A stretch of DNA of 64,000 bases from Eimeria praecox (taxonomy: Eukaryota), in the NCBI GenBank assembly GCA_963920595.1, contig OY986946.1, positions 248,001 to 312,000 on the forward strand, written 5' to 3'. Of this stretch, positions 21,415 to 63,300 are shown in pieces (positions within the stretch are counted from its first letter, which is position 1; each line of letters begins with the position of its first letter). Below the pieces are notes generated by a model that saw only the letters and a program-made list of their open reading frames with translations, was not told where the DNA came from and did not search any database. The translations under genes and the position numbers were made by a program.

Positions 21415-24400
21415 GTCCTGCGTTTATTAAGCATCACAAGCCCCTGATCCAGCCTAGGGCTCCGCATTTCACCCTGCGACGCAGCATGTCCACATCCACT
21501 CCCCCCAAGGTCTTCGATGACGCACCTACGGCACAAGATGCCTCCAACTTCAGTCTTGATGGCCAAACCATCTAGTCCACACAGCCAATGCAGCTTTCCG
21601 TAAACACGCGCCTTGATCAGGCTCGTTACAAAACGGTTGCCTCCAGTGCAGGCTTGCAGAGGCAGGTGGCCATGCTGTATCCTCAAATACGCATTGCATA
21701 ATGGTGATTGACCGTCAGCGGGCGTCATCCAAACTAGCGCGCTTACAGGCTAGGCAAATAACGTCGTTGCAGGAACCAAGTGCCATGCTGCAAGGTTGAT
21801 ATCCCATCAGATCACAGCGCCAACCACAATTCGTGAAATACCGAAATCACGGGAACGAATGCCCCAGCGCATCAGCGCTGCGCATGCAGTCTCATTGGCT
21901 AGTTGCCCCGACAGCGCGTATTATTCTATATTGAATACTCCAGCAGTGACTGCATCTAAGCACTGCGCAGACAAACTAATGCTTGAAACGTATCCTTCGC
22001 AAGCGTTTCGGGGCGCTTCAGGCTCCACAATCGCAGGCCTTTCTTCGCTTCTCTCACGGGCAAAATCAAATCAAAGTTGGTTGGGCAATCACCAGATTAG
22101 TGGTGCTGTCAGCTTACAAGCTATCGCAAAAACAAGTGGCAGGCCACTCAGCTATCGCTGTAAAATCTACTGTGTGACGGCAGTTCCGCAACCTTAATGA
22201 GCCAGCATGAACCCAGTCCAAACCGTGCTCCCGCTGAACTCCGATATGCACCGGCTCCTTGCCTGCCTCACGGCTACGAACATGCACAGCCTCTTGACCT
22301 CCGGTTTCGTAAACCACTATTCGCGCAGTTGAACACAGCCTGGTAAACGAACGCATAGCTTCCCTTCTTTTGGGCTCCGTTGGTTGGTCAATTTGAACCC
22401 GCTGTATATGGGCTGGAACCCTCACGCTCGAGTACGCTTGTGGCCTCTGCGTGTCACGTTCAGAATATTGCAGTCAGGCATGCGCCTCAAAGCAGATCAT
22501 TTGTATATGTGCTGGCGCTGGTATGCCTGCAAGGAGCATGTGGTTTCATGGTAGCACGCGCAAAACGTGGGTATCGCGAAAAAGCACGTGCAGATAGGCC
22601 TGTGCCGTGAGTTCGTTTAGAGTATATTTACTATGTTTGAGTGCTTCAAACGTCCTGCTGCGGTCCGCCTATCGCAGTCCCAAATCAGTTACAAATTTAT
22701 GCAATGCACCTCATCCCAACCCCCCCAACGCCTAATTAAGGACATCAAACCGTAGGTAGCCGCCTGCACACACGTTCGCCATGCGCATCGCGCGTGTAGG
22801 TTTAGCGCATCATATATTCGGACCTACGTCCTGCGTTGATTGAGCACCACGAGCACCCGATCCGTTGTAAGGATCTCCGCTTCGGCCTACGGTGGCAGCG
22901 TGCCCACATTCCCTTCCTCCAGATATGCGAATATACAGCATAATACACTTTCAAATTCATCTTTCTTTTCCCAAATAGGCAACAGTATATTTCCTATATG
23001 CATGTGGCTTGAGCAGTTGTGCTGCATAGCGCCTGTCACTGATATGTGTATGCCATGGATACGCGGCCATGCTGTACCTTCCTGTGCATTTAGCGTAGCG
23101 CTGATTGTCCTTCTAGTGTATTACCCAAACCAGCTTGCTTGCAACCAGAACAAGTGACATCGTTGCAACAACACCACACTGAAAGGTGGGCAGTGAATCC
23201 ACTAACAGCATTGTAGCGCCGTATTGTGTGCAGTGGAAATCAAAGAAAGGATGCCCTAGAATATCGGGAATGCGGATGCAGTTTCAGTGGTTAGTTGCTC
23301 GAGCATTCTGTGCTGGTTTGTACCGGATACACAAACACCTACTGGATTCAATAGTTGCGCAGAAAAGGCTAAGATTTTAAGCGCATTTCTTCGGATGTTC
23401 TATGTGCGACTTCAACCATCACAGCCCTGGGCTTTCTCCATTCGGCTCACAGGCAGAGTCACATTTGATTGAGGAATCACGAGAATATTAGTGATATCAG
23501 CTCACAGGCTATGGCCAAACCAAGCGGTAGGATCCTGAAATTTCGTTCCAGCACTTTTCTAAAGTGCAACGGATTTGGCGCAACCTTACACCACAAAAAA
23601 ATCAAATCGCGCCTCCCCCATGACTACGGTAAGCAAGCTAGCTTTGCTTCATCCGCGACCACGCAAGGGAAAATATTCTCGGCCGCTCGTGCCGACAGCA
23701 GTACCTCTGAAGCACTGAAGCACCGCTTGCGGATGCACATGGCGTCTATTCTGGGGGATCCCTTTCTTCAGGAATAATCTGCACTTGCATTCCTAATCTT
23801 GAATGCATTGCCTTTTCTTAGTGGGCCGCGAAAACTATTGCACTTTCATATGCGCCCCACCAGAATTAACTGCCGCCTAATTAATTCGTAAAAGAAAAAG
23901 GCGCACCTTTGCTCGCGAGCAAGCTCACCCACTATAGACAAAAAAGGCATAGCATAAAAGGTCAGCGAATGTTATTATTAACGCTTGTGAGAACACCGCT
24001 TCTTGTGCTTATCTCTGAAAAATCCGGAATGAAGAATGCTGCTGCGAAACTTCCTCGCATACTGGCTGAAGAGGCAGCTGCATGGCCCAAAGGAGAAATG
24101 CATGCGCTTCTCTTTCTGCACATAAGTTCCCCCACGCATTCCACATGCGTCTTCCTGCCCCTATCGAAAACACCCAAATTCTAGCGTGCAAGGTAAACAT
24201 ACAGTCTGGCCCATTCGGGTCTTCAAAATGATAGGCGATCTTGGCTGTTCCGACACTTCGAATGCTCATGAAGCTGCGTGGGCTCTGAGAATTGTAGCCA
24301 CGGCCGCGGCGTTGCTCACAAATGTCAGAGCCGTTTACATGACGGTACGGCAAAGCATCATTCCTGAGAAATCGGGGACACTGGATCGAATATCCTTGGA

Positions 24401-24635
24401 CACCGGCATTGCAGATGCAGTTTAGCTGGCTACTTGTCCACTCATGTTGTACTACTCTCAGAAGGATTAGCCACAGCCTTTTGCGTTCAACCGCTGCGGC
24501 AAATTGGTGGCGTTTGAAGTGCGTGTTCTAAACGCTTTCCAACCTGTACTACCACAGGACCTTTACACTATTCAAGCAGGCTCACTTAGACTGGGTTGGG
24601 CAGGCAAGAATTTTTGCATGGTGGCGGCTCACCGT
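21415..24635 (-). CDS. Candidate Pro/Trp/Asp/Thr micro-exon block: ACG 24633, ACT 24203, CCA 24063, TGG 23929, CCT 23506, GAC 22828, CTT 22118, CCT 21747, GAC 21415
   Basis: Each reads YAG|NNN|GTR on the minus strand (donors GTGAGC, GTATGT, GTATGC, GTGAGC, GTGAGC, GTAGGT, GTAAGC, GTAAGC, GTAGGT). They sit at the conserved cores of a diverged dispersed module. Confidence 0.6.
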
Positions 24636-26550
24636 CTATGTCCAAAACGAGTGACTTGTGCCTTTAGTTCACCACTCCAGCGCCAGCCGTACTACAGAGC
24701 TAGACCAACCTTATCGGACAGAAACAAACACAAGCCAGGCTACCGCCGCACCGCAACGCATGAACGCCGCGCTCCGTTCACGGCAACGCTAATGCAAAGC
24801 AGCCAGAGCTCCCCCATAGCTACACACGGTTCGCAATCCTTGCTTGGCGGAGCACTGAATGGACAGGAAGCAAATAGTGCCTCTCCTTCTGGCATCCTCT
24901 CCTCACGCTGAGCATGCCTTCTACGTATTGGTACTCTTACACGCGTTTGCATTCTCTGCCCGGCACGCGCAGACTACTGCAGATATACACGTATGCCCCC
25001 TCCGTTGCTCCAGTAGCCTGCCAATCAGTTCAATAGTCCTGATCCATGCACTTCTCCAAAATGCTCCAAAATGGTATAGAGAGGCCAGCTCGAACCCCAT
25101 ATCAAATATTGATGCACAAGGCAACTCGGCACCCTCTCCCAGAGAACCTTTGCATAACGATGTACAGCTGCAACACCAGCGAACCGCACCAGCTGTAACC
25201 CACCGTAAGACACGAGCGCCTGAACGGAATCGCTGATTTGTGCCTGACCGACGATCGCCTCTCACATTACCTGTGGAATGTTGGTAAGCATACCATGCCT
25301 TTCTGCCCTGCTACAGGTGAAACAACGCTGATGCATGCGTATAGATATCCTGTTGAAGTACGCCCACCTGCGGTGCTGGCTGATGGCTTCTCCGCAGCGA
25401 CGAAACGTACTGCTAAAACAAAGTGCGTACTGGCTAAACAGATAGTCGCGAATAGCCGAAACGCATTCCAGCAGGTTGGGTGGTCGAAATATTTGGTGGT
25501 TTTTTCAACACACGTAAGCCCAAACCTGCCTGCTGTGTGGCTGCAAAAAGCATGAATGTGTTGCTTAGTTTAAGGCTATAAAGGTGGAATGCCGACAGAA
25601 CTCCTGCGTAGTCACACAGTATTGGCAATCCCTCCGTAGTGAACCACAGCTTGCTCAGGAGGCATAATGCGTCTCTTCTTCCGGCTTCCTTTGCGGGAAA
25701 TGAGTATCCATTTCACACGTTGGCACGCCTAGGTTTGACGTCGCGTCAGGGTTTTCTCCTTTCCAGTCAGTTCTCGCTCCAGCACCTTGCATTAGGAGAT
25801 CGCGTTGGAATGCTTCAACAGACAGCTGCGAAAAGAAGCCGGTTTTCCACCAGACTACAAGAAGCATCAAAGCTCTGATTGAGTACAGGGTCACGCCAAT
25901 GAAAGCCCCTTGAATTCCCTTGTCTCGCTAAATACGCATAATTGACAATCCATGTGTAGGGGAGCACAGCTTGGTAAGGAGCCGAGTGGCATCTCTTCTT
26001 GTGGGTCCATTTGCTCAACATAAATCTGCTGCCTACGAAACGATACGTTTTCTCTTCAATCCGCCTGTGGTCTCTGAGTGTCACACCAAGGCTACGCTAA
26101 GCACATATAAGCACCCAAGCGAATCGTCGCTCTACGCACTGGCACTCTAAATACGCTTACAATGAGAGTGCTGTTTCTGAGACGCACGTGCCACCTGTCC
26201 TCTATTGCAGTCATGCCCAGCAGACCATTCACCGTTTCCACCCAGTAAATGAGGAGTCTGACCTATGGCAACAGATTAAGGCCAACCCGTGCCTACAGCC
26301 CCTGTTGAGGCTTTCGTACGGGAGCATATCCGCCGCCTGCTGCCCTTCAGACTGTTTCGCCTCCGTTTACAGATTCGCTGCATCCGTCCTGATTGTTCCG
26401 AGGCACTGGCAAGGCAGAATGCGGCCATCCACTGATACGCTTAGCACTTGGCTACAGTGAGCATCGCGCTCTAACAGGTTTGACCCTATGCGGGCCTCCC
26501 TCTCGAACACAGATTCTGTTTGACGTTGTGATTCATATATGCGGACCCAC

Positions 26551-28473
26551 GCCCTGCGTTGATTACGCCATGCGAGTACCAGGTTCCACGTAGGACTCAG
26601 CTCTTCGGCTTACGGCGACAGCATCTCCACATCCGCTCCCCCAACGATTTCCTACCCCTCCTAAACCAACACGATCAGAGGGCTTCCAATTTGGCCTTGG
26701 CACGGCAAACTGCCAGAGAAATTTCCCGAGACAAGCTCACAGACCAACTGTGCTGCAAAGCACCCGTCTTAGCTGCGGTTCGGCGCAGTTGGTCGGTCAG
26801 GCTGGGTCTTAAACGCCTCGCATACACTTTTATTACCTTTTGCATAGTGCTGGTGGACTGTGGCATGAATCAGCCAGATCAGCGGGCGTACAGGCTAAGC
26901 AAGTGACTTCGTTGCAGCACCCACAATATTCCACACTGCAAGGTGCAAGATGCACCAACCCACAGCAGTACAGCGTCATCCTTGACCTATCGAAATTAAG
27001 GGAAGGCATCTACTAAGCTATTGCCGCTCTCTGCCGATGCAGTATCATCGTCTAGTTGCCCTGCCATTGCATATTTATCTACATGGAATGCTCAGGACAG
27101 GCCCCAGAAGATCATGCAGCTCACCTCCTGTGAGGCACCGCATCTACTGCGTCCCACCATACACCGTAAATGCAACCGCTGGTCTACGCTCCAAAGTACA
27201 TAGGCAGCTCAAGTCACGGCATAGACAGCTCACAGCAGAGACCGTACGCACAATCTGTGAAATAGCAAGGTGTGTTCACGGCGTGCTGTAAGTGTCTACT
27301 GTTACCCACCATACGCTGTGCATGTACCGTCTTGCTCTTGCCAGCCTTCTTTTGTGAGAAAGCATAAGTTGCTCAAACCACCGGTGTTCATACTTAGTCG
27401 ACACGGGCCATCCTGCGCACTTTCTGTGATGCACGACACATAATATTGCCATACAGCATATGCCGTGAACGCACACTGTTCTCCTGTACAAGCATGCATT
27501 CCAAAACCCAGTGGTGCTAAAATTTGCCGCTGTTTCATAAAGCAAACGTCGCTCAAACCATCCGCAAGCGTAGGCAGGCCGCAGGAACCCTTGAAGCTTG
27601 TCTTGTGTGAAACACCGCATCTGCTATCACTCACATTACATCGCGAACGCTCTTCTTCCTCCATTTACAAACGCCCATTCCCATATTCAGTGGCCTCAGT
27701 CCTGGCCTCTGCTCTAGGACGCAAACCTAGCACTAGCCACAGGCATGGGGTAGGACACCTCAAACGAGAGGTATGCACAGAGATGTTGCAGCAGGCAGCG
27801 ATACCCACCTCCTGTTGCAGCCAGTATGCAATCGCTGCACTCAACCTAGAATTGCGACAAACGTGCCTTCAAGTACGGAATCTACGTCCTGATGCTTCGA
27901 ATGCAATAGCTAGATTCCGATATGATCCAAGCATACTCCCCGCCTGCTGTGTCTTCCATGGCGTCGATTTCTATCCTGGCTGATGACTCCTGCCTCAGAT
28001 TTGAAGTCTGTGCACGCCCGCATCTCGTCGCATTTTCCTTCAGCCTGCTTGCAAACGGCTACAGGGCAATTCATGGCGGCAGAGCAAATGCGCGGTGTAC
28101 CCTCCGTAGCGGCGAAGGACTGTTATGGAATAAAAGTGTATTCAAATTTTATACGTGCTCAAGCATTCCGTAAGAGGCTTTCGGAGCCATAACGGTGTAG
28201 TCAATCCGTATGCCGGGGCACACGTGCATCTACAATGAGTTGGCCATGCTCAGGGGGCCAAGTGCTTTTGAGTCCCCGTTTCCTTCTACATCCGCCTATG
28301 CTTCTCAACACAAAGCTTTATCTGCCTTCACACTACCCTCATACGCGAATGCATGCACAACAATGGCTCAAACAGGATGCATTCCCCCAACATATCTCAG
28401 CGGTTTTTCACAGCCCTTACTCCAATTATTTCAGCACCTCCACTGCTGTCAGTTCAAACGATTCGCGTACTTT
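26551..28473 (-). CDS. Candidate micro-exons: AAA 28471, GAG 27809, AAA 27421, ATT 27252, GAG 27125, CCT 26892, GGC 26551 (a broken site lies at ~27603)
   Basis: All show YAG|NNN|GTR. The stretch 27605-27740 is recognisably homologous to the 1,475-bp array intron (gtgaaacacc...cctctgctc...gcaaacctagcac). Confidence 0.5.
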
Positions 28474-31400
28474 CTGGACACCACAGCATGCCCTTATACG
28501 AGAAACGATTCATACACCACACCTGCGCATGAGCCCACTTGACGTGCATTTGCCTCCCTGCGAAAAGCTTCCAACACACAGAAGCTGCTTGCACGTCCAA
28601 AGCCCAACACCGTCCAATGTGGCAAGCGGGTCAGCCTAGTATTAACTGGTGATGCCAATCCGTGACAGCAAGGAGCGGAAAGCGATCGAATACTCATAGT
28701 ACACTAACCGCCTATATTCGCGTGAAGACCAAGCTTTTCGGCAAATGTTGCATCAAGCGGCCACGACCCCTCAAACTGCTTAGTGCACGCTCAGTCAAGC
28801 AGGCCCATTAACATTAGCCCCCTAAAACAGATCACTGTGCGTGCCACTTACGGCCCCGCGACCGTCACAAAGGGATCCTGGCTGCCGTTAATGCCTGGTA
28901 CCGCGCTATGAGGAGCCTGTGGCACCCACTTCCTGCAGCAGTTTGTAGTGCCAGATTCAGTCCTGCAAATGCCAAAGGATGCGCCGCAGCACGCAGCCTT
29001 CTGATCAACAGACAAGCGCACTACCAAGGCAAAAAAGGATCCCCTTCTGCTTCCGCCATGTGTACGCTCCCTTCCACTAAGACGCATGCACCTGAACACG
29101 CAGCTGCACTTATCTTCATACTACGGGCAAGCCACCAGGAACGCAGCGTAATGACTCCGACCAGATGCGTAGCCTAAGCACGTCTCACAGTCGCTGCACG
29201 CACGGCGTCCTGCAACCATCAAGCCACAGCACACGCACAACTGCTAATACAATCCATGTGCATACTTCCTGGTCCGCACAGCAAACAGTTGCAAGAAAAA
29301 GTCGTTGTCACGCCGCATCTTCGCAGGACCTCGCTTACGCTGCTTTCGCTCCCAAAATACGTAACATACACGCCAATCGATTCTGTGTACAGCCCCTGCA
29401 CACAATTCGCGATTCCCCAAATTCGGTGACAGCCATCCCACGAAGATGGTGGCTCTGCTGGATATCGATTAATAGCTGCCACTTTTGAGAAGCCGACGAT
29501 ATGCTATAAACAAACAAAGCGTGAGAAAAGACACTCACGTGCCGAACACGGGATCATGTACACCGTGGCGCAGGCTGTAGCGTGCACGTGCGGTCCACCT
29601 TCGACAGCGGGACAAAGAGCACCGTCGGTTGTCAACAACGCATATGCTAAATGCGTGTAGTGGAGAGCAAAGCATGTAGGCTCGTCTCACCAGGCCATGC
29701 ACCTGCCCATACTATATGTTCTCTTCCTTAGGCATACACATGTAGAGCGATTCTCCCGACCGAGTCGCTGCCCTCACCCGCCCATGAACCGTCCAGACAT
29801 ACGGAACCTCACATGCGCCACACCTGGGCTGTGCAACGCTGCTCGGATATCCCTTTACATTGGTCACGCAACAGCTGTTAGTGGCAGGGATTCCCCATCA
29901 AAAGCTAATCAAAACTCCGGAAAGCACCTCCTTCTGAAGAATACAAAGGGCGTGCGCTGTTATAAGCTAGGAATCACTCCTTGGTCTTCAGTCTGCACGT
30001 TTCTCTGAATGGAAGTGCATAAATGCATACATCTGAGCTGTGATCCCTACCTGCACTCACACACCCCACACAATACGGTGCAGCTAGAACGACGATTAGC
30101 CAAAAATGCATACCCTCAGTATCCCCCAAACGTGCCAGTCCGCATGCTGGCCGCTTCCTTCCGAGCAATTTCCCAGCTGTCCGTTGCAGTATGCGCATAC
30201 TTGCTGGGGGATGTGGACGTCAACCCAGCAAATAAAGGGAAAGCGATATCAAACACTGGAGATGTGTGAAGATGAACAGTGTGAACTGCATGCGCCTTCG
30301 GTGAAGGGAACATGCACTCAAACCAGCCTTCGAACGACAAGCAGAGAACACCACCATACAGTGCCCCAAACTAGAGCCAACCGCCTGCATTATACTCTCC
30401 TCGTTCCTTCGTGTTAACCAATAAATGAGCAATGAGATAGAGCTACAGGCTTCGCGCCGTTTTGTGAGCGTGCCATAAGTATTTAACCAGCTTGCGCTTG
30501 CCGCACTGTCAGCCTTGCCCCGCCCTTCTCCATATCCATCCCCTACAAAACAAGTGCCACCTTACACAGCCAGGCGGGCCTTCAATCGTAATGAAGGCTT
30601 GACACAAATCACCGCGTAGTTGTCGCTGTTTCCTACTACGTACTGCGCTGGACAAACACTGCCTTAACAACTCACTAAAACCATTTGCAATATTAGACTC
30701 CTAGTAGATATCGACGGCAGACGCGCCCAAACCAGATCGAACTCCCACTTTTCCTCACGCTGCAACTACATAATTCTTCACGCGTGCAAATATATATCAA
30801 CGCCTGCCACCAGCCGGCTAGAAAGCTAGCGGCGCCCATAAACGTGCCAGGCAGAAGTGCTTACTTCCTGGGTAAAACAGCGAGCGACCATACAGCCAAA
30901 GAAGCCGTCTCTACACTGCGCCCTTCAACGCGAGTACGCAAACTGCATAACCCCACGATGCTCACGCATGCAGGTACCCCACATATCCACGAAATAATGC
31001 GTTTTCTCGTACTAGCGAAGGGGGTTGATTTCACCTGGGCAGCCTGATCAATTCCACCTTCAACACCAAATGCAAATTGTGCAGCTGGCTCCAAGGGGCG
31101 TTATTGCCGAATTCTGCTGCTTTTGAAGGCCAGCAAACACCTAAAATGCTTAGGCTCTCCGACAAACAACGTACGTATAGACAGAAAGCCTGCTTTTTGT
31201 CTACCTGTGCTTACTTGGTTGGGTCGCTCTGAATGCTTTGTCGTGGGATGCCTTGTTCAGTCAAAGACTAGCAATACACTCATAAATTGCAACTTGGCCG
31301 AACACAAAGGCATTTAAATAGGGACGCCCAAACAGAATCACCCCTATGCAGTACAGGTTTGGGGTGCGCATTCCCCTATCCAATAAAGCGCATTCCTTAT

Positions 31401-33224
31401 TTTGCACTTCATATATGCAGACCTACGTCCTGCGTTTATTAAGCATCACAAGCCCCTGATCCAGCCTAGGGCTCCGCATTTCACCCTGCGACGCAGCATG
31501 TCCACATCCACTCCCCCCAAGGTCTTCGATGACGCACCTACGGCACAAGATGCCTCCAACTTCAGTCTTGATGGCCAAACCATCTAGTCCACACAGCCAA
31601 TGCAGCTTTCCGTAAACACGCGCCTTGATCAGGCTCGTTACAAAACGGTTGCCTCCAGTGCAGGCTTGCAGAGGCAGGTGGCCATGCTGTATCCTCAAAT
31701 ACGCATTGCATAATGGTGATTGACCGTCAGCGGGCGTCATCCAAACTAGCGCGCTTACAGGCTAGGCAAATAACGTCGTTGCAGGAACCAAGTGCCATGC
31801 TGCAAGGTTGATATCCCATCAGATCACAGCGCCAACCACAATTCGTGAAATACCGAAATCACGGGAACGAGTGCCCCAGCGCATCAGCGCTGCGCATGCA
31901 GTCTCATTGGCTAGTTGCCCCGACAGCGCGTATTATTCTATATTGAATACTCCAGCAGTGACTGCATCTAAGCACTGCGCAGACAAACTAATGCTTGAAA
32001 CGTATCCTTCGCAAGCGTTTCGGGGCGCTTCAGGCTCCACAATCGCAGGCCTTTCTTCGCTTCTCTCACGGGCAAAATCAAATCAAAGTTGGTTGGGCAA
32101 TCACCAGATTAGTGGTGCTGTCAGCTTACAAGCTATCGCAAAAACAAGTGGCAGGCCACTCAGCTATCGCTGTAAAATCTACTGTGTGACGGCAGTTCCG
32201 CAATCTTAATGAGCCAGCATGAACCCAGTCCAAACCGTGCTCCCGCTGAACTCCGATATGCACCGGCTCCTTGCCTGCCTCACGGCTACGAACATGCACA
32301 GCCTCTTGACCTCCGGTTTCGTAAACCACTATTCGCGCAGTTGAACACAGCTTCGTAAACGAACGCATGGCTTCCCTTGTTTGGGGGTCCGTTGGTTGGT
32401 CAATTTGAACCCGCTGTATATGGGCTGGAACCCTCACGCTTGAGTACGCTTGTGGCCTCTGCGTGTCGCGCTCAGAATATTGCAGTCAGGCGTGCGCCTC
32501 AAGGCTGACCATCTCTATACGTTCTGGCACTTGCACGCTTGCGCAAGGCATGTGTTGTTTCGGTAACGTGCACAGATGCTTGACGGTGTACGTAAAAGCC
32601 CATTCGCAGTTGCCAGCCGGTGAATAAGCCACCAGAAATACGGCATCCGAGCACGGGCATGCTCTAACCCATCCAGAAGGGTTCGAAAGGGCCGTCATCG
32701 CCCTTCCGACTGTCTTGGTATCCTTATTCAAATTCTCGGCACCTGCCCTGATAGGCTGTAAGGCATTTTTCAAACAAAAGCTCGGCCAGTTGTTGATACG
32801 TTTAATAAATCGAAAACGTGAGCGTCACGCTCTTCACGAATGGCGGCACGTCAATCCCTGTCCAATAAAGCACTTTCTATATTCTGCCCGCCGTACGTGA
32901 GAATCCTCTCCCTGCGCTAACCAGGTACCAGGAGCAACAGACCCTTACTTGGGCTCCGCACTTCGGCCTACGGCGGTAGCACGTCCACACTCGCTTCGCT
33001 CAAGGTCTTCGATGACGACTCGGCAACTCCGGGAGCGTCTACATTTATGATTGATTCATGATGGTAACCAGAGGGTGTTTTCGTATAGGCACGTGGCTCG
33101 ACCAAATCAATTATGCTGCAAACTGCTTATCTCCAACGTGGGCTGGGGTAGGCAGTCGGCCATGTTGAGTCCTTTTACACTTCGCATATGGCTGATCGGC
33201 TTCCAGGTGTATCAATGTACGTAC

Positions 33225-34180
33225 AGGCTAGACCAGTGACGTCGCTGGGAGAATAGCTATATTTCTTGTTGCAAGGTACAGACTGCACGAACACGCAGCA
33301 TTAAGCATCACTTTTGAAATACTGAAAACAAGGGAGCGAGTGCATTAGGACATCGGCACTGCAGATGCAGTTTCTTTGCTAGTGTTCCATATGAGATACT
33401 GCAGCGTGTTCAACACGGCACGCATGTTGAACACGTTCAATCGCTGCGCAGAAGCGCTGACAGTCCATGTGTTGTGGTTTTGAATGGCTTCCGTGCAGCC
33501 TCAACCTTCACGACCGTGGACTGGTTTTAAAGTCCCCAGAAGGTATAATTGGTTTCGGTTGGGCAGCCACGAGGCTACTAGTGGTGCCAGCTTACAGGCT
33601 ATGACAGAAGCACGTGGCAGCTCATTCCTCTATCATTCCAGCATCTTTTACTGTGTGGCAAAAACGTGGCACAACCTTATGAGACTGGCGCAAACGAAGA
33701 CCAGGCGGCTGGAGAATTAAGGCAAGCATAAGCGCTTTGCTAGCCTCATGGCCACGCCAGTGCACAGCACTTTGAACTCCTGTGTCATTAACACTATTTT
33801 CAAGCCATGCGGATTGGAACGCGGCTTGGCATAAGAAAGCAAAATGTATCTATTCCTGTGGGCCGCTTTGCTCACAGTTAATCTGCTTTCTGCACTTTTT
33901 AATCCTACTCTTGAATGCACTTGGGCTCTCTGCTTGGAACGCGAGGAATACTGCAGCCGTATAAGCCCCCCCAGCAGATTCAGCTGCTTGCCAATTAGTT
34001 CGTTAAACAGACGAGCCATCCTTTGCCCGTTGGGAAACTCACCCACTGTAAAACGAAGAACGCAGGGTACAGGCATCGGAATTTCACTATTTGCAGTTGT
34101 TCGAACATCGCCTCTGACAGTTCTGGTCTCTACAAGCTCCAGAGTCCAAAATGCTGTTGCGAAATTTTTCTGCATACTGG
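33225..34180 (-). CDS. Candidate micro-exons CCA 34178, TGG 34043, CCT 33596 and CCT 33225 (P-W-P-P); repeated at +10335
   Basis: cttCAG|CCA|GTATGC, tttaCAG|TGG|GTGAGT, gtcaTAG|CCT|GTAAGC and gtcTAG|CCT|GTACGT. Confidence 0.6.

Positions 34181-51098: not shown

Positions 51099-51099
<1 letters not shown>

Positions 51100-51167
<68 letters not shown>
51100..51167. repeat. (TA)34 microsatellite, present only in 10.3-kb unit 4
   Basis: Directly visible, and absent at the equivalent position (~40765) of unit 3. Confidence 0.97.
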
Positions 51168-51172
<5 letters not shown>

Positions 51173-51173
51173 T

Positions 51174-51223
51174 TGGTTGGCGCTGTGATCTGATGATATC
51201 GCATCAGATCACAGCGCCAACCA
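51174..51223. repeat. Perfect 22-bp inverted repeat with a 6-nt loop
   Basis: tggttggcgctgtgatctgatg (51174-51195) pairs with catcagatcacagcgccaacca (51202-51223). Confidence 0.95.
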
Positions 51224-53575
51224 CAATTCGTGAAATACCGAAATCACGGGAACGAACGCCCCAGCGCATCAGCGCTGCGTATGCAGTCTCATTGGCTAGT
51301 TGCCCCGACAGTGCGTATTATTCTATATTGAATACTCCAGCAGTGATTGCATCTAAGCACTGCGCAGACAAGCTAGTGCTTGAAACATATCCCTCGCAAG
51401 CGTTTAGGGGCGCTTCAGGCTCCACAATCGCAGGCCTTTCTTCGCTTCTCTCACGAGCAAAATCAAATCAAAGTTGGTTGGGCAATCACCAGATTAGTGG
51501 TGCTGTCAGCTTACAGGCTATCGCAAAAACAGGTGGCAGGCCACTCAGCTATCGCTGTAAAATCTACTGTGTGACGGCAGTTCCGCAACCTTAATGAGCC
51601 AGCATGAACCCAGTCCAAACCGTGCTCCCGCTGAACTCCGATATGCACCGGCTCCTTGCCTGCCTCACGGCTACGAACATGCACAGCCTCTTGACCTCCG
51701 GTTTCGTAAACCACTATTCGCGCAGTTGAACACAGCTTCGTAAACGAACGCATGACTTCCCTTGTTTGGGGGTCCGTTGGTTGGTCAATTTGAACCCGCT
51801 GTATATGGGCTGGAACCCTCACGCTTGAGTACGCTTGTGGCCTCTGCGTGTCGCGCTCAGAATATTGCAGTCAGGCGTGCGCCTCAAGGCTGACCATCTC
51901 TATACGTTCTGGCACTTGCACGCTTGCGCAAGGCATGTGTTGTTTCGGTAACGTGCACAGATGCTTGACGGTGTACGTAAAAGCCCATTCGCAGTTGCCA
52001 GCCGGTGAATAAGCCACCAGAAATACGGCATCCGAGCACGGGCATGCTCTAACCCATCCAGAAGGGTTCGAAAGGGCCGTCATCGCCCTTCCGACTGTCT
52101 TGGTATCCTTATTCAAATTCTCGGCACCTGCCCTGATAGGCTGTAAGGCATTTTTCAAACAAAAGCTCGGCCAGTTGTTGATACGTTTAATAAATCGAAA
52201 ACGTGAGCGTCACGCTCTTCACGAATGGCGGCACGTCAATCCCTGTCCAATAAAGCACTTTCTATATTCTGCCCGCCGTACGTGAGAATCCTCTCCCTGC
52301 GCTAACCAGGTACCAGGAGCAACAGACCCTTACTTGGGCTCCGCACTTCGGCCTACGGCGGTAGCACGTCCACACTCGCTTCGCTCAAGGTCTTCGATGA
52401 CGACTCGGCAACTCCGGGAGCGTCTACATTTATGATTGATTCATGATGGTAACCAGAGGGTGTTTTCGTATAGGCACGTGGCTCGACCAAATCAATTATG
52501 CTGCAAACTGCTTATCTCCAACGTGGGCTGGGATAGGCAATCGGCCATGTTGAGTCCTTTTACACTTCGCATATGGCTGATCGGCTTCCAGGTGTATCAA
52601 TGTGCGTACAGGCTAGACCAGTGGCGTCGCTGGGAGAATAGCTATATTTCTTGTTGCAAGGTACGGACTGCACGAACTCGCAGCATTAAGCATCACTTTT
52701 GAAATACTGAAAACAAGGGAGCGAGTGCATTAGGACATCGGCACTGCAGATGCAGTTTCTTTGCTAGTGTTCCATATGAGATACTGCAGCGTGTTCAACA
52801 CGGCACGCATGTTGAACACGTTCAATCGCTGCGCAGAAGCGCTGACAGTCCATGTGTTGTGGTTTTGAATGGCTTCCGTGCAGCCTCAACCTTCACGACC
52901 GTGGACTGGTTTTAAAGTCCCCAGAAGGTATAATTGGTTTCGGTTGGGCAGCCACGAGGCTACTAGTGGTGCCAGCTTACAGGCTATGACAGAAGCACGT
53001 GGCAGCTCATTCCTCTATCATTCCAGCATCTTTTACTGTGTGGCAAAAACGTGGCACAACCTTATGAGACTGGCGCAAACGAAGACCAGGCGGCTGGAGA
53101 ATTAAGGCAAGCATAAGCGCTTTGCTAGCCTCATGGCCACGCCAGTGCACAGCACTTTGAACTCCTGTGTCATTAACACTATTTTCAAGCCATGCGGATT
53201 GGAACGCGGCTTGGCATAAGAAAGCAAAATGTATCTATTCCTGTGGGGCCCTTTGCGCACAGTGCGAGCCGGCGAGCGACCATAGGGCCAAAGAGCGCCT
53301 TCCAAACCGCAAGCACAGAAACTGCATACCCCCACGGTGCTAACACGCGCACGGCGCCTAGGTGTCCATCCAAAAAAATGTATGCTCCTGCCAGCGGAAG
53401 GTGTTAGCTCAAATGAACATTTGTGGCACGCTCACGTTGCGCATTAGCCGATCGCAAAACGATTAAACATTGGCGTTAAAACAAAACCCCCAGCCTCACG
53501 TAAAGGTTCGACATGCGGATATCCCTTTCCAATAAAGCACATTTTTGATTTTGCACTTTGTATATGCGGGTCTAC

Positions 53576-56386
53576 TCGCTGCGTTGATTGGGAACCCAGA
53601 GCACCGGATCCGCCTTGAGGCTCCGGAGTTTTGCCTGCTGGGGCCTCAGTTGTCCGTGTGCTTCTTCGACACTGTTCGCTGATGCATCAAAAGCTTGAAC
53701 AGCACCCACATTCGGCCTTGGCATCCCTAGAAGCCAGCGTAGCCACCTACAGGCAACCGCGCGACCAGCCCTGCAGCAGTCATTTGCCTCCAATGCGAGC
53801 TGGCACAGGTTGGCTGTTTTTCTGCCTACTTTGCGAAACCGGATAATGGTGATCGACTGCCATATGTATCGGACGCCCTAGCGTACGTACAGGCTAGACA
53901 AGCGACGTTGTTGCCACAACGACATAGTTCCATGCTTCATAGTGGGCAATGTACGAACTCAGAGCGCAGCAGCATCATTCAGGAGATACCAAGAGCAAGA
54001 GAGCGAATGGCGTATGATATCGGCGTTGCAAGGGCCGCTTCATTCCCACTTATCTAGGCACGAAGCACTGTTTTTTATTGGAATCTCGAGAACTTATTGT
54101 GCTCAACCATTGAGCAGCAGATCTCATGTTAGATGATTGGCTACTCGCGAGACTATGGCTGGTATCAGCTTACAGGCTATGGCAAAAGCGAGCGATGCGC
54201 CACTCAGTTTTCGCATCATCGCCTTGTACAGTGTAATGCTGTTGCAGCAACCTTTTTGGACAGAAGCAAACCCAAATCACGCTCGCGACGGTCTACGATA
54301 AACTTGCATATTTTGCTTGGTTCAAGGTCATACTGGTGCAAAAGCGTTCAAACTGTTGTTTTGTTAATTCCACAGGATTCACCATCCATGTGTAATGGAG
54401 TACACCTTTGTATGAAAGATATTCGCACTCTGTTGGTTTTACGCTCAGGAAGAATCGTATTTGTGTACACTGGGATTCCTACCCATCCAGAACGATTGCC
54501 AGTGCTTAAATGCACGCAAGGGAAATTGCAGTTATGCGTAGCAGAACAGTCAGAGCCTGCAGGCCGCGAGCATGCAACCTGAATTACGGCATGCATTTAG
54601 GGCCACTCCTTCACTAAAGAACCTCCTGAGACGGCCCGAGACGGCCCGCGGGGATACCGCAGCGCACAGCCCTTTGGACTGTCTCGGCTTTTTCAACACA
54701 CTTTGGTGCACTCGTCTTCATCCACTGTAGGGTATTATCAAGGGAACGCGCGGCTGCTTGTTGGATGGCTCAGCACGCCGCTGCCGTGAGCATCCAGCTC
54801 TCCTAAGAGGTGATGATGTGCGCCTCGGCTTGCCAAACAAGCACTTGCTTACGTCATATATGCAGACCCTCCTGATGCGTTGATTAGCCACCAAAAGATC
54901 TAGGTCCATGCTACGGCCCTGTTTCCCCCAAGATGCTCAACGGTGAGCCTTCAACAGAGGGTGCATTCAACTTCATCATTCGCTTCCCAGCACCTAGTGG
55001 AATTTGCCGAGGCACGCCACTGCCCCCGCTATGTTGCATAAAAGTTGTCACTCGTGCGGGCTGGCAGACGTGAGCGATCATGCTGTCTGCTCCTTTGCAA
55101 ACCGCATAATGGCGAGAGGTGTTTAGATGCACCGGACAAACTACCGCGCGTACAGGCTAGAAACGGTGGCGCCGTTGCCACAACAACAAACCCCCATGTT
55201 GCACGGTGGGCATTGCATCAATCCAGCGCATTACGGCACCATCCTTAGGATATCCAAATTACGGGAGAAAATCTTCTAGGATACCGGTGCCGCAGGCCCA
55301 GTTTTGTTGGGTAGATGCCTAGACGATGTTTATCATTCCAAACAAGATTTTCCCAAACTCATTGGTCTCGAACTGATGTTTGAAATGCTGGTTTAGAACG
55401 TGTTGGGTGTGGCTTCAGCTTCCGAGAGAGCTGGCGTTTTTTTGCTTCTCAGTCAAATACAACTAATAAGCTGTTAGGTAGTTGTTACACCTCTGGCAGT
55501 GCCAGCTTACAGGCTATGGCAACAGCGAGGGGAAAATGACACTCTTCCCCCCTATCACCTTTTACTGTCTGATACAGCAACCCCATCAGACAGACGCAAA
55601 CTCATACTACTCCCCCCTCAACGCTACGGTTACGCATAACCGCTCTGCTTATATCAAGGCCGCGCATCAGAAAAGGCGTTCAAATTTTCGTATTGTTACT
55701 CACTATTCGCGGTTTGTGCGGAGTGAAACGTAGTTAGGTAAGAAAGCAGATGGCGTCCCTTCTTGTGGGCCCCTTTCCTCAAGCTCAATCTGCCTTTTAA
55801 CCACTGGCGCTTTTACGCTTTTACACTCCTTCCCCTAGGTCACCCAATTGACTGGCCAGCGGTTCAAAGCCAGAGGAGTGTCGACTGGGCTACTGGAAGA
55901 CGCACCCACTATACAACGAATTGCTCATGATAAAACAAAAGTATTAGATTATGTTCAGTTAGTGGGGCACCGCCTCCTATGGTGTCAGTCTCTGGTAGCT
56001 CCGCATTCGCAAAGCCCGGTTGCGTACTTTCTGCACGGGCAAGCACATTTCCCAATTGAGGATTACCTTTTTCGCGGACGGCTTCAGTTTAGCAAGACTG
56101 CTGTGAGTTTGCTACAAAAACACAGACGCATTCAGAGGAGCCGTAGCACACGGGTAAATGCCACTAAATCAATAGCTGAAAGCGTAACACCCTCGATATG
56201 GGCACCTCCCATGTACAGTTTTCTGCTTATAAGCTTGTCTTCCGCCTGTATAATGTTGCTCCTGGCAAAGCACTTAAAGTTCCAGGGAGGGCCCATTAAC
56301 TAATGATAGCGCATACACTATCAATCCTCCCGTAAAAATGGAGCCATTTCGTTGGATGCCGGGTTCCCTGGTGGTAAACATACAAG
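53576..56386 (-). CDS. Candidate micro-exons in diverged single-copy modules: CTT 56384, AAA 56028, TGG 55906, CCT 55511, CCT 55154, CCT 54174, CCT 53891, CGA 53576
   Basis: YAG|NNN|GTR is retained at positions homologous to those in the 21-24 kb and 33-34 kb modules, although the flanks are heavily diverged. Confidence 0.55.
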
Positions 56387-57329
56387 CTGGTTCACTCGGT
56401 TGTTCGCAGTGGTGAGCAGTGTTAACCTTCGCAGCCCCTTGAGTGTTTACGGAGCTGAATTCGTTCTGAGAAATGAGGCCGAGGCCCGCACGTGGTATTG
56501 GTATAATTCGCGAACTACCCTAGATGATTTTCCGCAGCGCATAATTTCTAGCAATTCAAAAACTCGGCAGCTGCTACCCTCAGCGAATGGCACTGCACAG
56601 GTAGTTCCATTAAACAGTTAGCCCCTCACTATGCACTAGCTTGAAATGGATTAACAGGCATTTACGGCGGTTAATCGCTATACAGAAGAAGCGTCGTTTG
56701 AAACGTTTTTCCAAACGGTTTCCGTGTACCTGCAGCATAGAAGCACGCTGGGTGTTAACGCTTCTCCAAAAGGATCAATCACGCATGTCTGCGCAGTCGA
56801 GATGGCTTTGGTGGCGGAAGCGACAGATGCGAGCGCAAACCCCGTTGCCTTCACGCCGCGCAAATCATGAATACGTTGCTTGGCGCAGAGCCATGCCAGC
56901 TTAAAACGCTCAAACTCCGCCGACGTTACACAACATTCGTGCTCCATGCTCAATGGAACACTGACGTACACACCGACGTACACAACATTCGTGCTCCATG
57001 CTCAAGGTAAGAACGCAAATATAATGCCTTTTAGCAGGCTTCTACGCTCGTGCAGAATCATTTTTCTAATGACCTGGCACTCTTGCGCTTGAATGCAACT
57101 GTGTTCCCTGTGGGGCAAGGGCAGACTACCGCAGTAACGTACATATACTCTACCGCTGGCCAACTAGTTCGTTAGGGATGATCAATATAACCGTTCAGAA
57201 GGGCTTAGAAGAGTCCCCCTACTCCAGATATCAACGTTTGTCCACACGGAAAATCAGCTATCTATATAGGCGATTGCCGATATGGACATGCAGGGCAGCT
57301 GCTAACTACGCCAGCTTACTAACACAAAG

Positions 57330-60300
57330 CAGGTGCACGCCCGCGAACCAAATGTCTGCCTTTTGCCCATCCCACTACAATCTACCGCATCATTATCTGA
57401 CGCAAATCTCACAGCATTAGGGCTTCCTTAACGTGAAACAACACGTAAGCATATGGTTAGCCTGCTGACATCGGCATACTAACAGCGCTTGCTGATGACT
57501 CCTGCGCAGCGGAAGAACGCCTTCGTGAAACTGCTTGCGTACCCGCTGAACAGGTAGACAAACCACCGCAGGGCCGCTGCGAACAGGTTGGGCAATCGAA
57601 CGGCTTCTGACGGTCGTAGCAATATGGATAAGCGCACACGATGATGCTATGGAGCTGCAAGAAGCATGAACGCTTCGGTTGGCGCAAGGCTACGCCAATG
57701 CTAAGCCGCCCACACTCCCGCAGTGCTATACACCATTTGCAATCCATGATCAGTGGCGAAAAGCATGGTAAGAATGATAACGGTACGCCTTCCTGCAGCC
57801 GCGTTTGCTCGAAGAGCATATTCTTTCTACGCCACCACAATCCTACGCTTGAATGCGCTCGCATTTTCTTGGTTGCACGGGGAGACTATTGCCATCGTAC
57901 GTGCGAAAGCATTCACGACCTCCAGTCGGTCAACAAGCAACTAGCAATAGGGCAAGGCGGAGCAGGGCCATGCCACAAATGCAAACCGTTCTGAGGCAGT
58001 CGGGATGTGTCCAGGCAGGCATTGATATCTAGACTGTGGTTGCCTCTTTAACAGGTTCGGCTGCAGCCTTCCTGAGTTGCTGTAGTACAGCAAAAAGGCA
58101 AAGCATGGCTATTTGCTTGTTGGCTCAGTGCTTCGCGACCGCAAGCAGCGTGCGTTTGCAAGAAGTGGTGACATGCGGCTCTCTTTGTTGCAGAAAGGTC
58201 TCTTTTGATTTAGTATTTCATATATAAGGACGTACATCCTGCGTTGACCAAGCACAGGAGGAACCAGATTCGTCCTGTGATGCCGCGCCTCAGCCTCCGG
58301 GGCAGTATGCCCACGTAAGCTTCCCCGACGGTTTTCGTTGATGAACCTATAACACGATATATATTGGTGGCCGTCGTGCTCTTCCCAAACATCCACCAGA
58401 ATTAGCCCAGACACGTGATGCGACGCCCCACGCTGCTCAGCACTTCCCACTCGTGCTGGTTGGGAAACGTAAGCGGCCGTGCTTCGCTTTCCTTACAAAG
58501 CACAACATAACAACGATTGACACTCAGATATATCAGGCAAACCTGAGAGCGTACAGGCTAGACAAGTGATGCCGTTGTCACCACAACAAGTTTCCATGTT
58601 GCAAGGTGAACAATGCGTCAACTAAGAGCATTGCAGCACCATTCTTCCAATACCAAAACTACTGGGACGAACGTCCAAGGATGCCGACTTTGCTGCAGAT
58701 GCAATTCCATCAGGTGCCCATTCACGGTGAACCCCATTACGGAGAGCCCGACCTATTTTGCGTCACATTGTCTCTCGGGAAGGCTCCTCCATGAAATACG
58801 TATTTGCAGCGAATTTCACGTAGGTCCAACGTTCAAGAGGGCTGGATATTCACACCTCGTTCAAAGAAGGCTGGCTAGTCATGGCCCTCTAAGACGTTCA
58901 GTCATGTTTGTTTGGGAGGGCGGGAGACGTTCGACGGTGGCAGCTTACAGACTATGTCAAATACGGATGAACTAGTTTTGCGGTCTCAGTCCAGCACCGT
59001 ATGGTGCACTACGCCATCGGAGCAACTGTGTCGTACAGATGAGAACCAAGACCAGGCTGCTTCCGTACAGAGAGAGGCATGAATGCCTTGCCTGGTTCCG
59101 GGCTAAGCAGGCGCAGAGTCGCTTTAACTCCGGTATTGTTGCACAGTATTCATGGCCATACGAAGCAGGTGACTGGATCGCAACGCAGTTCTCCACCAGC
59201 GTACTATGCAACGCGCTTTGGTGAGTGTCACCCTTGCCACTCGTGCCTATTACTCCGCATGCACTATCCTACCGAACTCCTGCAGCAGCGTCCAGTCGCA
59301 GGCGCTGTCTGCTTGCGCATATCGCCTCGGCGGTCTTTATCAAATACTTTCTTCACTGAGAGGTACGCCTGGATTTGCTGTTATACTCACCAGCTTTATC
59401 CCACCATACCGCCACTCCACTGTGCAACAAATGTCTGCCTTTTGCCCATCCCACTACAATCTACCGCATCATTATCTGACGCAAATCTCACAGCATTAGG
59501 GCTTCCTTAACGTGAAACAACACGTAAGCATATGGTTAGCCTGCTGACATCGGCATACTAACAGCGCTTGCTGATGACTCCTGCGCAGCGGAAGAACGCC
59601 TTCGTGAAACTGCTTGCGTACCCGCTGAACAGGTAGACAAACCACCGCAGGGCCGCTGCGAACAGGTTGGGCAATCGAACGGCTTCTGGCGGTCGCAGCA
59701 ATATGGATAAGCGCACACGGTGATGCTATGGAGCTGCAAGAAGCATGAACGCTTCCGTTGGCGCAAGGCTACGCCAATGCTAAGCCGCCCACACTCCCGC
59801 AGTGCTACACACCATTTGCAATCCATGATCAGTGGCGAAAAGCATGCTAAGAACGATAACGGTACGCCTTCCTGCAGCCGCGTTTGCTCGAAGAGCATAT
59901 TCTTTCTACGCCACCACAATCCTACGCTTGAATGCGCTCGCATTTTCTTGGTTGCACGGGGAGACTATTGCCATCGTACGTGCGAAAGCATTCACGACCT
60001 CCAGTCGGTCAACAAGCAACTAGCAATAGGGCAAGGCAGAGCAGGGCCGTGCCATAAATGCAGACTGTTCTGAGGCAATCGGGATGTGTCGACGCAAAAG
60101 CTGCTGATTTCTAGAGTGTCACACCCTGGTTATGAAGCTTTGTTGCCGCTGCCTTGGTGGGCTGCTGAGCTTTGTGAAGTTAACCAGTTCCTCGTTAATA
60201 CGCTAAGTACTCCGGTACTGTTATTACCGTGCGTTTGCACGAAGGTGTGGCGTGCGAACCCCTGTGACGAATTGAGCTCTATTGGGGCTTAAGCGTCATG

Positions 60301-63300
60301 TAGGTGAACGAACTTTCTGCGTCGATTAGGCATCATATGGGGCAGACCTGCCGTGTCATGCCGCAATTCAGCCGGTGGACTTGGCATTCCCACATATGGT
60401 GATGTGCACCATGGGACACATTCAATTCCACAGGTTTCTTCCCAAACATCCTGTGAGATTCTCCTAGGCCAGTGGTTCTACGCATTGCTCTATGCAGGGC
60501 TTGGCACTCGCGCCGGTTGGCACGCGTAAGCGGTCATGCTGTTTCCTTTACAAGGCACATAATGGCCACCGATTGTTAGACGTATCAGGCAAACCATTGT
60601 GCGTACAGGCTGTACAAGTGACGCCGTTGCGACAACGGCAAATGTCCATGTTGCAAGATGGGCAATGCATCAACTCAGAACGTTGCAGCACCATTACGAA
60701 ACCCGCGGGGAGGAATATGCTAGAATACCAGCACTGCAGAAGGAGCTCCATTAGGTAGTTGCCGACTCACTGCGTATTATTCTGTAGTGAAAAACCCGTC
60801 GCATTTTTTCATTCAATTAATGCTCCTCTAACATCTACAATTGAACGCTGTGTTGCAGTTCAGAGACAGATGATGGCTCTAGCTCACAGTCTGTAGCATA
60901 GGCGAGACAAATATCGCTCACGCGTCACCTTAGCTATTCTTACTCTGTTTTGGCATCGGCAGAACTGCGTCGGGGCAGATACGCCCCTAAACCATGCTGC
61001 CGCCGGACAACGAGAGGAGACCTGCTTAGCTAAGAGCCACCCCGGTGCGCAACCGCTTAAACTGTTGCGCAGTTGCACACTATTCGCAATCCATGTTCAG
61101 TAAAGCACTGCAATGGACAGGAAGCAAAAGCGCAACATTCCTGCCAACTCCTATGCTCAGGAACGATTCCCTTTTTAAGGATCCAGCACTCATGCGCTTG
61201 AATGCGATAGCGTTCACTGCGTCGGGACCTGGATAATATTTAGTGTACAGGCATTTCCCCTGGCATACGCTTTCTAGAAGTAGTCCATCACTTTTGCTTT
61301 ATGCAACGCCCCAAATGGGTAATGCCTGGTCACCTTCTCCCGCTGCTGAATGGTTCTTGAGAACGCTCGCAAACGTTTTCTCGCAGTTCCCCCACACGGC
61401 AATCGACACTTGCAGCTACAGTTGATCTCACGGGCTGCAGTCCACCAGGCAGGCGCACGCCCGCGAACCAAATGTCTGCCTTTTGCCCATCCCACTACAA
61501 TCTACCGCATCATTATCTGACGCAAATCTCACAGCATTAGGGCTTCCTTAACGTGAAACAACACGTAAGCATATGGTTAGCCTGCTGACATCGGCATACT
61601 AACAGCGCTTGCTGATGACTCCTGCGCAGCGGAAGAACGCCTTCGTGAAACTGCTTGCGTACCCGCTGAACAGGTAGACAAACCACCGCAGGGCCGCTGC
61701 GAACAGGTTGGGCAATCGAACGGCTTCTGACGGTCGTAGCAATATGGATAAGCGCACACGATGATGCTATGGAGCTGCAACAAGCATGAACGCTTCCGTT
61801 GGCGCAAGGCTACGCCAATGCTAAGCCGCCCACACTCCCGCAGTGCTATACACCATTTGCAATCCATGATCAGTGGCGAAAAGCATGGTAAGAACGACAA
61901 CGGTACGCCTTCCTGCAGCCGCGTTTGCTCGAAGAGCATATTCTTTCTACGCCACCACAATCCTACGCTTGAATGCGCTCGCATTTTCTTGGTTGCACGG
62001 GGAGACTATTGCCATCGTACGTGCGAAAGCATTCACGACCTCCAGTCGGTCAACAAGCAACTAGCAATAGGGCAAGGCGGAGCAGGGCCATGCCACAAAT
62101 GCAAACCGTTCTGAGGCAGTCGGGATGTGTCCAGGCAGGCATTGATATCTAGACTGTGGTTGCCTCTTTAACAGGTTCGGCTGCAGCCTTCCTGAGTTGC
62201 TGTAGTACAGCAAAAAGGCAAAGCATGGCTATTTGCTTGTTGGCTCAGTGCTTCGCGACCGCAAGCAGCGTGCGTTTGCAAGAAGTGGTGACATGCGGCT
62301 CTCTTTGTTGCATAAAGGTCTCTTTTGATTTAGTATTTCATATATAAGGACGTACATCCTGCGTTGACCAAGCACAGGAGGAACCAGATTCGTCCTGTGA
62401 TGCCGCGCCTCAGCCTCCGGGGCAGTATGCCCACGTAAGCTTCCCCGACGGTTTTCGTTGATGAACCTATAACACGATATATATTGGTGGCCGTCGTGCT
62501 CTTCCCAAACATCCACCAGAATTAGCCCAGACACGTGATGCGACGCCCCACGCTGCTCAGCACTTCCCACTCGTGCTGGTTGGGAAACGTAAGCGGCCGT
62601 GCTTCGCTTTCCTTACAAAGCACAACATAACAACGATTGACACTCAGATATATCAGGCAAACCTGAGAGCGTACAGGCTAGACAAGTGATGCCGTTGTCA
62701 CCACAACAAGTTTCCATGTTGCAAGGTGAACAATGCGTCAACTAAGAGCATTGCAGCACCATTCTTCCAATACCAAAACTACTGGGACGAACGTCCAAGG
62801 ATGCCGAATTTGCTGCAGACGCAATTCCATCAGGTGCCCATTCACGGTGAACCCCATTACGGAGAGCCCGACCTATTTTGCGTCACATTGTCTCTCGGGA
62901 AGGCTCCCCCATACAATACGTATTTGCAGCGAATTTCACGTAGGTCCAACGTTCAAGAGGGCTGGATATTCACAGCTCGTTCAAAGAAGGCTGGCTAGTC
63001 ATGGCCCTCTAAGACGTTCAGTCATGTTTGTTTGGGAGGGCGGGAGACGTTCGACGGTGGCAGCTTACAGACTATGTCAAATACGGATGAACTAGTTTTG
63101 CGGTCTCAGTCCAGCACCGTATGGTGCACTACGCCATCGGAGCAACTGTGTCGTACAGATGAGAACCAAGACCAGGCTGCTTCCGTACAGAGAGAGGCAT
63201 GAATGCCTTGCCTGGTTCCGGGCTAAGCAGGCGCAGAGTCGCTTTAACTCCGGTATTGTTGCACAGTATTCATGGCCATACGAAGCAGGTGACTGGATCG

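Follow-up and report, generated by a model that had tools for sequence, protein, structure and literature searches.

What kind of element repeats an acceptor-like motif, exactly three nucleotides and a donor-like motif over tens of kilobases of a single strand? This question is raised by a 64,000-nucleotide (nt) stretch of Eimeria praecox DNA (contig OY986946.1, positions 248,001 to 312,000), referred to here as the window and numbered from its first letter. An earlier description made from the letters alone, referred to here as the sequence-only reading, had identified within it an ancient, dispersed module carrying three motifs that would, on the minus strand, be splice sites around single codons. 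The acceptor–codon–donor units of this module are strand-specific, length-specific and conserved in diverged copies, and the module is probably a block of three to five one-codon exons belonging to one large protein gene on the minus strand, which is likely to have expanded through nested tandem duplications.

An excess of 3-nt sites on one strand

Across the whole window, the strict pattern YAG-NNN-GTRNGY occurs 125 times on the minus strand and once on the plus strand, compared with 14.3 times in Markov-model sequence; 52 of the 125 strict sites are non-redundant. Successive strict sites lie 119–2033 nt apart, with a median interval of 373 nt. After masking of duplicates, which leaves 29,395 nt, and with the looser donor GTRNG, a spacing of 3 nt between acceptor and donor is found at 58 minus-strand sites and 4 plus-strand sites, compared with a mean of 11.6 (s.d. 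3.8, maximum 20) for the 39 other spacings between 0 and 39 nt. Among short spacings, only the 3-nt exon class is strongly enriched.

Positions that had no part in selecting these 58 sites are also biased. A pyrimidine is present at +6 in 52 of them, compared with 155 of 294 other GTRNG motifs, and at −5 in 49, compared with 510 of 1009 for all YAG motifs; AG is absent from −15 to −3 in 52 sites, compared with 457 of 1009 for all YAG motifs. With one member taken from each of 20 sequence families, the corresponding counts are 18, 17 and 17 of 20 (P about 5e-4, 1.5e-3 and 3e-4). A CTRAC-type branch motif is not among the top enriched words upstream of the acceptors.

Conservation of the module

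The module aligns in eight diverged copies, all in one orientation and with pairwise identities of 51–59% (Table 1). Its three motifs occur at the coordinates that the sequence-only reading had given and read YAG-NNN-GTRNGY on the minus strand; they lie 281–394 nt apart in the seven diverged copies that keep all three positions (about 280–395 nt had been given), and broken copies are indeed present, at ~23145, ~32911 and ~54874. The copies are not dispersed, as had been thought, being located within one tandemly expanded array, and those at 31.4, 36.9, 41.8, 43.2, 47.2, 52.3 and 62.3 kb belong to recent duplicates that are 98–99.6% identical and not independent.

Conservation along the alignment peaks where splicing would predict. 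Of 59 non-overlapping 12-column blocks (median 0.56), the three highest (0.88, 0.82 and 0.79) coincide with sites 1 and 2 and with the site-3 acceptor, and mean conservation is 0.77 in the 36 core columns compared with 0.53 in the 892 others. Conservation extends beyond the splice sites, with the fourth- and fifth-ranked blocks (0.76 and 0.74) formed by intronic boxes upstream of site 2. These conserved boxes, together with a GT-rich tract before the Lys/Glu exons described below, may be putative branch or enhancer elements.

With dead copies counted, the AG, the GT and the +5 G are all intact in 8 of 8 copies at site 1 (0.9 expected from flank divergence), in 7 of 8 at site 2 (2.2 expected), in 5 of 8 at site 3 (1.3 expected) and in 14 of 17 members of the Lys/Glu family (1.4 expected), giving 34 of 41 diverged sites across the four families. 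This test treats the copies as independent, and the families and motifs were picked after the fact for conservation, so that its P values are optimistic. Retention of the cores far beyond the flank expectation agrees with the purifying selection on splice sites around single codons that had been proposed. In addition, a profile built from seven site-1 copies recovered a held-out eighth diverged copy (E 2e-16) at 45307, in which both splice sites are intact and the codon is ACG.

Other details of the first description need revision. Variation within splice consensus was borne out for TAG/CAG and for GTAAGC/GTGAGC/GTACGC, but not for the weak site-3 donors GTTCGT (60316) and GTAGAC (53578). Of the eight copies listed there as three-site modules, two (at 21.4 and 58.2 kb) have full consensus at all three sites; the copy at 26.5 kb has no site 1, and those at 54874 and 32911 have a dead site 3. 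The third codon encodes Asp, as claimed, in three of the eight, the others having Gly, Lys, Arg or, in two cases, a dead site, and the CCT/TCT/ACT/CTT changes described as synonymous exchange Pro, Ser, Thr and Leu. Constraint at site 3 is weaker than that description implied. Because the module extends upstream by two further exons (CCA or AAA, then TGG) in three copies, the ancient unit probably comprised five exons, which would read P-W-P-P-D in phase 0.

The Lys/Glu array and the reading frame

At 1–4840 is a tandem array of a second kind of unit, in which an intron and a Lys or Glu codon are repeated as eight diverged sub-units (Table 1). CAG and GTG are invariant across all eight, and the triplet between them varies. 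Read in phase 0, and with the weak-donor eighth sub-unit included, the 26 exons of the array form a regular E4-R-K3 repeat (four Glu, then one Arg and three Lys), so that each residue has an oppositely charged partner four positions along; this regularity is conditional on both phase and inclusion. The order is modest evidence by itself: if four acidic and four basic residues are arranged in a cycle, 8 of the 70 possible orders are fully blocked, and charge blocks could also be a product of duplication history.

The AAG and GAG exons on the minus strand (1–4840, 12009–12367 and 47797–48481) are also tandem acceptors of the form CAG-NAG-GT, at which splicing to the second AG would leave the residue out, possibly providing a built-in include-or-skip switch.

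Joining the 125 strict triplets gives no stop in phase 0, 13 in phase 1 and none in phase 2. Phase 1 is closed and phase 2 is weakly disfavoured; given splicing, the frame is very probably phase 0, with a composition of 36 Pro, 30 Glu, 17 Lys, 8 Arg, 8 Thr, 6 Asp and 20 others. Were the 3-nt exons spliced in phase 2, which we consider unlikely, codons would be split over two exons and the product would be Leu-rich with Arg/Lys tracts. That frame is stop-free over the 125-site chain, and in it the varying first base of sites 1 and 3 would be synonymous after TGG and CCT exons. It would also accommodate the nearly fixed last base of CCT, which never varies at site 2 (7 of 7 intact copies) and varies once at site 1 (1 of 8); this fixed base counts against phase 0 because it would be a free wobble position there. 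Phase 2 is disfavoured only by composition, by the regular four-acidic/four-basic repeat, which comes from phase 0, and by one stop, at the last junction of a hand-picked, tentative exon chain at 15.5–17.2 kb. The ACT/ACG variants at site 1 and the AAG/AAA and GAA/GAG variants of the Lys/Glu family are instead synonymous in phase 0.

A probable gene of one-codon exons and its alternatives

The DNA-level features described above make phase-0 splicing likely. A gene of one-codon exons would have grown by nested tandem duplication of intron-plus-codon units, and its splicing would proceed by intron definition, one intron at a time, since a 3-nt exon does not allow simultaneous binding at its two ends. 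Its product would be a low-complexity chain rich in Pro/Thr and Glu/Lys followed by the E4-R-K3 repeat, the latter predicted to form a salt-bridged single α-helix serving as an extended spacer or spring. Loss or skipping of a one-codon exon would delete one residue and leave the frame unshifted. The locus is probably a single putative gene across the window, beyond both ends of which it would extend. More speculative, and doubtful when taken as a whole, is the proposal that it is a live gene in which well over 100 consecutive residues, each with its own exon, are distributed over more than 64 kb (less than 1% coding), the skipping, gain and loss of single-codon exons tuning, residue by residue, the length of a proline-rich tether and both the length and the charge register of a single α-helix of the ER/K type; the product would then be a mechanical-spacer protein and not an immune-receptor diversifier.

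If spliced as predicted, the transcript would pass through more than 120 successive splicing steps of one codon each, and would offer a natural setting in which to test intron against exon definition, the order in which introns are removed and the accuracy required of the spliceosome. The protein would evolve as whole intron-plus-codon units are duplicated and lost, and the locus would display ancient (~55% identity) and recent (~99%) duplication layers together with dead exons. Ordinary gene finders and short-read aligners would probably overlook such a gene, and similar genes may be unannotated elsewhere.

Several points, in addition to the open phase-2 frame and the fixed CCT base, weigh against a gene of this kind. 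Raw site counts overstate independence because many sites share a small number of ancestral units (a strict cut-off gives 20 families and a looser one, at which chance links chain, 8). Site 3 is at full consensus in 4 of 8 copies and dead or weak in the other 4. The window contains no start, stop or domain. Mismatches between recent duplicates affect 2 of 390 splice-core positions, 8 of 234 exon positions and 377 of 36286 positions elsewhere; the splice-core count is uninformative, comprising few events of which some are counted twice, and the exon mismatches are a handful of events, every one of them residue-changing. No homologue was found, which is weak evidence since few query residues are likely to be real: five candidates for the open reading frame (ORF) with a tentative 44-nt exon included none with E ≤ 10, and six for the 123-nt open stretch at 63712–63834, also a weak query, included none that was significant (no usable Atlas match and one PDB match, E 1.2).

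Some of these points would fit a genuine gene of one-codon exons, recently dead or in partial decay, whose conservation reflects past selection. Dead sites with intact neighbours occur at 23145, 54874, 52296 and 48274, and at 50873 in a 98% identical copy; a fold-back and a (TA)36 run interrupt a module copy at 51194; and splice cores are without significant protection in the recent duplicates, so that the locus is no more than putatively a currently active gene. We nevertheless consider decay improbable, given the 34 of 41 diverged sites that keep their cores and a phase-0 chain without a stop. Dead sites among intact neighbours are explained in a functional gene, too, because loss of a single-codon exon is frame-neutral.

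Quite improbable is that the triplets are untranslated, either as stepping stones for recursive removal of a giant intron or as exons of a non-coding RNA. Triplets such as AAG, GAG and CAG put AG directly before GT, as in ratchet points, at 11 of the 58 non-redundant sites, and ORF scans of the window found no ORF or domain. Ratchet-point splicing fails for most sites, however, because 47 of the 58 triplets do not end in AG and because abutting AG-GT (spacing 0, 11 sites) is at the background mean, strong enrichment being confined to spacing 3. The codons, moreover, occur in non-random Pro-rich and Glu/Lys-patterned runs.

It is hardly credible that the boxes are merely splice-site-like parts of a decayed transposon, structured RNA or protein-binding repeat, even though homology spans the whole module with its additional intronic boxes and sites 1 and 2 have a common 12-nt look-alike motif, given an acceptor–codon–donor layout recurring with different codons in 20 sequence families, significant profile matches on one strand only, an unfavourable covariation term (+2.12) for a conserved fold around site 2, no match to Rfam or to a tRNA, and no transposase or reverse transcriptase domain in the 34 ORFs scanned.

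In line with the splice-site interpretation of the sequence-only reading, no Rfam family (0 matches in the window), tRNA (0 by ARAGORN) or Pfam domain accounts for the motifs. Of the 64 ORFs of at least 120 amino acids, 34 were scanned, the rest being duplicate copies, and none reached the cut-off of a Pfam family, NACHT and ankyrin included. Nine of the 34, searched at E ≤ 1, gave one match, to a Taeniidae antigen family (E 0.04, 14.2 bits against a cut-off of 31.9), which is sub-threshold and was rejected; the other 25 gave no match at E ≤ 0.01. None of the 25 longest inverted repeats in 40.7–64 kb bounds a module (48 shorter ones are present besides). Twenty-two metagenome loci with the 19-nt site-1 pattern were attributed to chance, having neither a flanking match (longest 29 nt) nor an excess of 3-nt sites.

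Relation to known systems

Arrays of codon-sized exons are already described in truffle; new here are the scale, the long diverged introns and the kind of protein. The nank (NACHT-ankyrin) genes of Tuber melanosporum are described as having many codon-sized microexons per gene (PMC4986451 and PMC13449251, citing Iotti et al. 2012). The present locus is similar at the DNA level in its many codon-sized exons (125 strict sites, 52 non-redundant). Neither a NACHT nor an ankyrin domain was found in the 34 of 64 window ORFs scanned, though the gene would continue past both window edges. The locus differs in the size of its run, with 125 or more sites across 64 kb, in introns that are long (median 373 nt) and for the most part highly diverged, and in its predicted Pro/Glu/Lys low-complexity chain with an E4-R-K3 repeat.

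The micro-exon genes (MEGs) of Schistosoma are described as having a coding region made mainly of short symmetric exons of at most 36 bp, the loss of which keeps the frame, and as expanding by exon duplication; the same account gives them mixed exon lengths and signal-peptide products and describes the class as schistosome-restricted (PMC8293314). At the DNA level, the present locus likewise has mostly short symmetric exons, but nearly all of them have a length of exactly 3 nt, and neither end of the gene falls inside the window. Schistosoma has a GC content of roughly 35% and the window ~51% throughout; no homologue was found for the two queries named above, and the locus is not assigned to the class.

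Isolated exons of 1–3 nt show that spliceosomes cope with such sizes. Reported examples are 3-nt exons in Drosophila troponin T and mouse Ncam (PMC8042270), a 1-nt exon in Arabidopsis APC11 (PMC4674806) and 27 three-nt exons in 26 Coprinopsis genes (PMC12230235); isolated 3-nt exons are known also in Amphidinium. These occur about once per gene, in contrast to the dozens-long runs here. Removal of introns one after another has been proposed around 1-nt and other tiny exons (PMC4674806, PMC8831610).

Single α-helices are described as rich in Glu, Lys and Arg, and designed AEEEKKK and AEEEKRK repeats form them (PMC5347031). The predicted phase-0 product of 1–4840 similarly alternates four acidic and four basic residues; unlike those helices, it is deduced from DNA and would be encoded one residue per exon. 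In the mostly open-access literature searched, we found no gene with more than 100 one-codon exons, with long diverged introns of this kind or with an exon-per-residue charged helix.

Organization of the locus

Nested duplications, all in the same orientation, build the sequence, and each ~10.3-kb unit contains about 21 strict 3-nt sites (Table 1). In the window as a whole, TGCA/GCATGC is enriched and CCGG is depleted, a composition that would suit a coccidian-type apicomplexan or a green alga.

Table 1 Module copies, other candidate exons and duplications in the window
Feature	Position	Strand	Details
Module copy M1	62356..63071	-	Exons 63069-63071 (TCT), 62675-62677 (CCT), 62356-62358 (GAT); consensus at all
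Recent duplicate of M1	58236..58951	-	98.8% identical block 57323-59311 = 61443-63431
Module copy M2	60314..60890	-	Exons 60888-60890 (ACT), 60607-60609 (CCT), 60314-60316 (AAA, weak donor GTTCGT)
Module copy M3	54872..56030	-	Extra upstream exons 56028-56030 (AAA), 55906-55908 (TGG); 55511-55513 (CCT), 55154-55156 (CCT)
M3 site 3	~54874	-	Dead, AG and GT lost
Module copy M4	53576..54176	-	Exons 54174-54176 (CCT), 53891-53893 (CCT), 53576-53578 (CGA, weak donor GTAGAC)
Module copy M5	52294..52983	-	Exons 52981-52983, 52610-52612 (CCT); site 3 at 52296 dead (GT lost)
Near-identical M5 copies	43933/43562/43246 and 33598/33227/32911	-	CCA and TGG exons upstream of each (44515/44380; 34180/34045)
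Module copy M6	41762..42467	-	Exons 42465-42467 (CTT), 42094-42096 (CCT), 41762-41764 (GAC)
Near-identical M6 copies	32132/31761/31429 and 22120/21749/21417	-	
Truncated M6 copy	51515-51517	-	Site 1 only (CCT)
Module copy M7	22828..24065	-	Exons 24063-24065 (CCA), 23929-23931 (TGG), 23506-23508 (CCT), 22828-22830 (GAC); site 2 dead ~23145
Module copy M8	47223..47566	-	Without site 1; exons 47564-47566 (CCT), 47223-47225 (GGC)
Near-identical M8 copies	37231/36890 and 26894/26553	-	
Held-out site-1 copy (ACG)	45305..45307	-	Profile match; copies at 34972 and 24635
Lys/Glu array	1..4840	-	1475-bp unit (~3.3 copies) of eight diverged ~185-bp intron+codon sub-units
Three more Lys/Glu family exons	12009..12367	-	12367, 12188, 12011 (AAG)
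Further Lys/Glu members	48481, 48095, 47926, 47799	-	Dead 48274; altered 11884
Tentative short exons	15530..17165	-	13, 17, 3, 7, 2, 16, 44, 3 nt; hand-picked; 35-codon frame open in phase 0 only
Duplicate of tentative 16+44-nt exon pair	11617/11352	-	
End of longer upstream exon	63971..64000	-	Continues beyond window edge; donor GTAAGC at 63970; all three frames open
Candidate 6-nt, then 3-nt exon	63836-63841, 63712-63714	-	Downstream of 63971..64000 exon
~1.3-kb units	7.2-15.4 kb		
~10.3-kb unit	18.8-51.1 kb		About three repeats (98-99.6%)
~10.3-kb tandem repeat, detail	18784..51099		24184-40764 = 34521-51099 at 99.6%; partial copy 18784-22547
4.1-kb-spaced repeat	57-63 kb		

Contig depth in one run is ~1500–1800 over the 10.3-kb unit and ~490 in single-copy DNA, which is compatible with a real triplication, depth being a rough guide that does not give a copy number. 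Splice-like joints were not seen over 44001–64000 in the contigs of two DNA runs from one sample. Loose contig ends at 53461, 55494 and 45095, the first common to both runs, suggest a second allele, inserted DNA or a related locus at a different genomic site.

Located at 51100–51227, where a module copy is cut after site 1, is the (TA)36 run beside a 26-bp fold-back (arms 51170–51195 and 51202–51227); this junction is probably the boundary of the 10.3-kb duplication. A run of ~22 G on the minus strand (16292–16316) is just upstream of the boundary of an 843-bp duplication (15387–16225 = 10897–11738).

The exon model is less certain outside the module and the Lys/Glu array. The chain at 15.5–17.2 kb is tentative, several other strong donors there having been left out. 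Between the candidate 6-nt and 3-nt exons near the upper edge of the window, the 121-nt intron is open in phase 0, the alternative being a 123-nt exon spliced from the second acceptor (63712–63834, minus strand). The minus strand of 7227–15567 has ~1.3-kb units with CCT and CCA/ACT/GCT 3-nt sites, along with exon candidates of 5 and 7 nt; the exon model is uncertain there, as an intron of only ~41 nt would have to separate the 5-nt from the 3-nt site. The single-copy minus-strand segment 4840–6350 has several strong donors (6092, 5586 and 5499), and its exon candidates measure 7, 2 or 32, and 19 nt.

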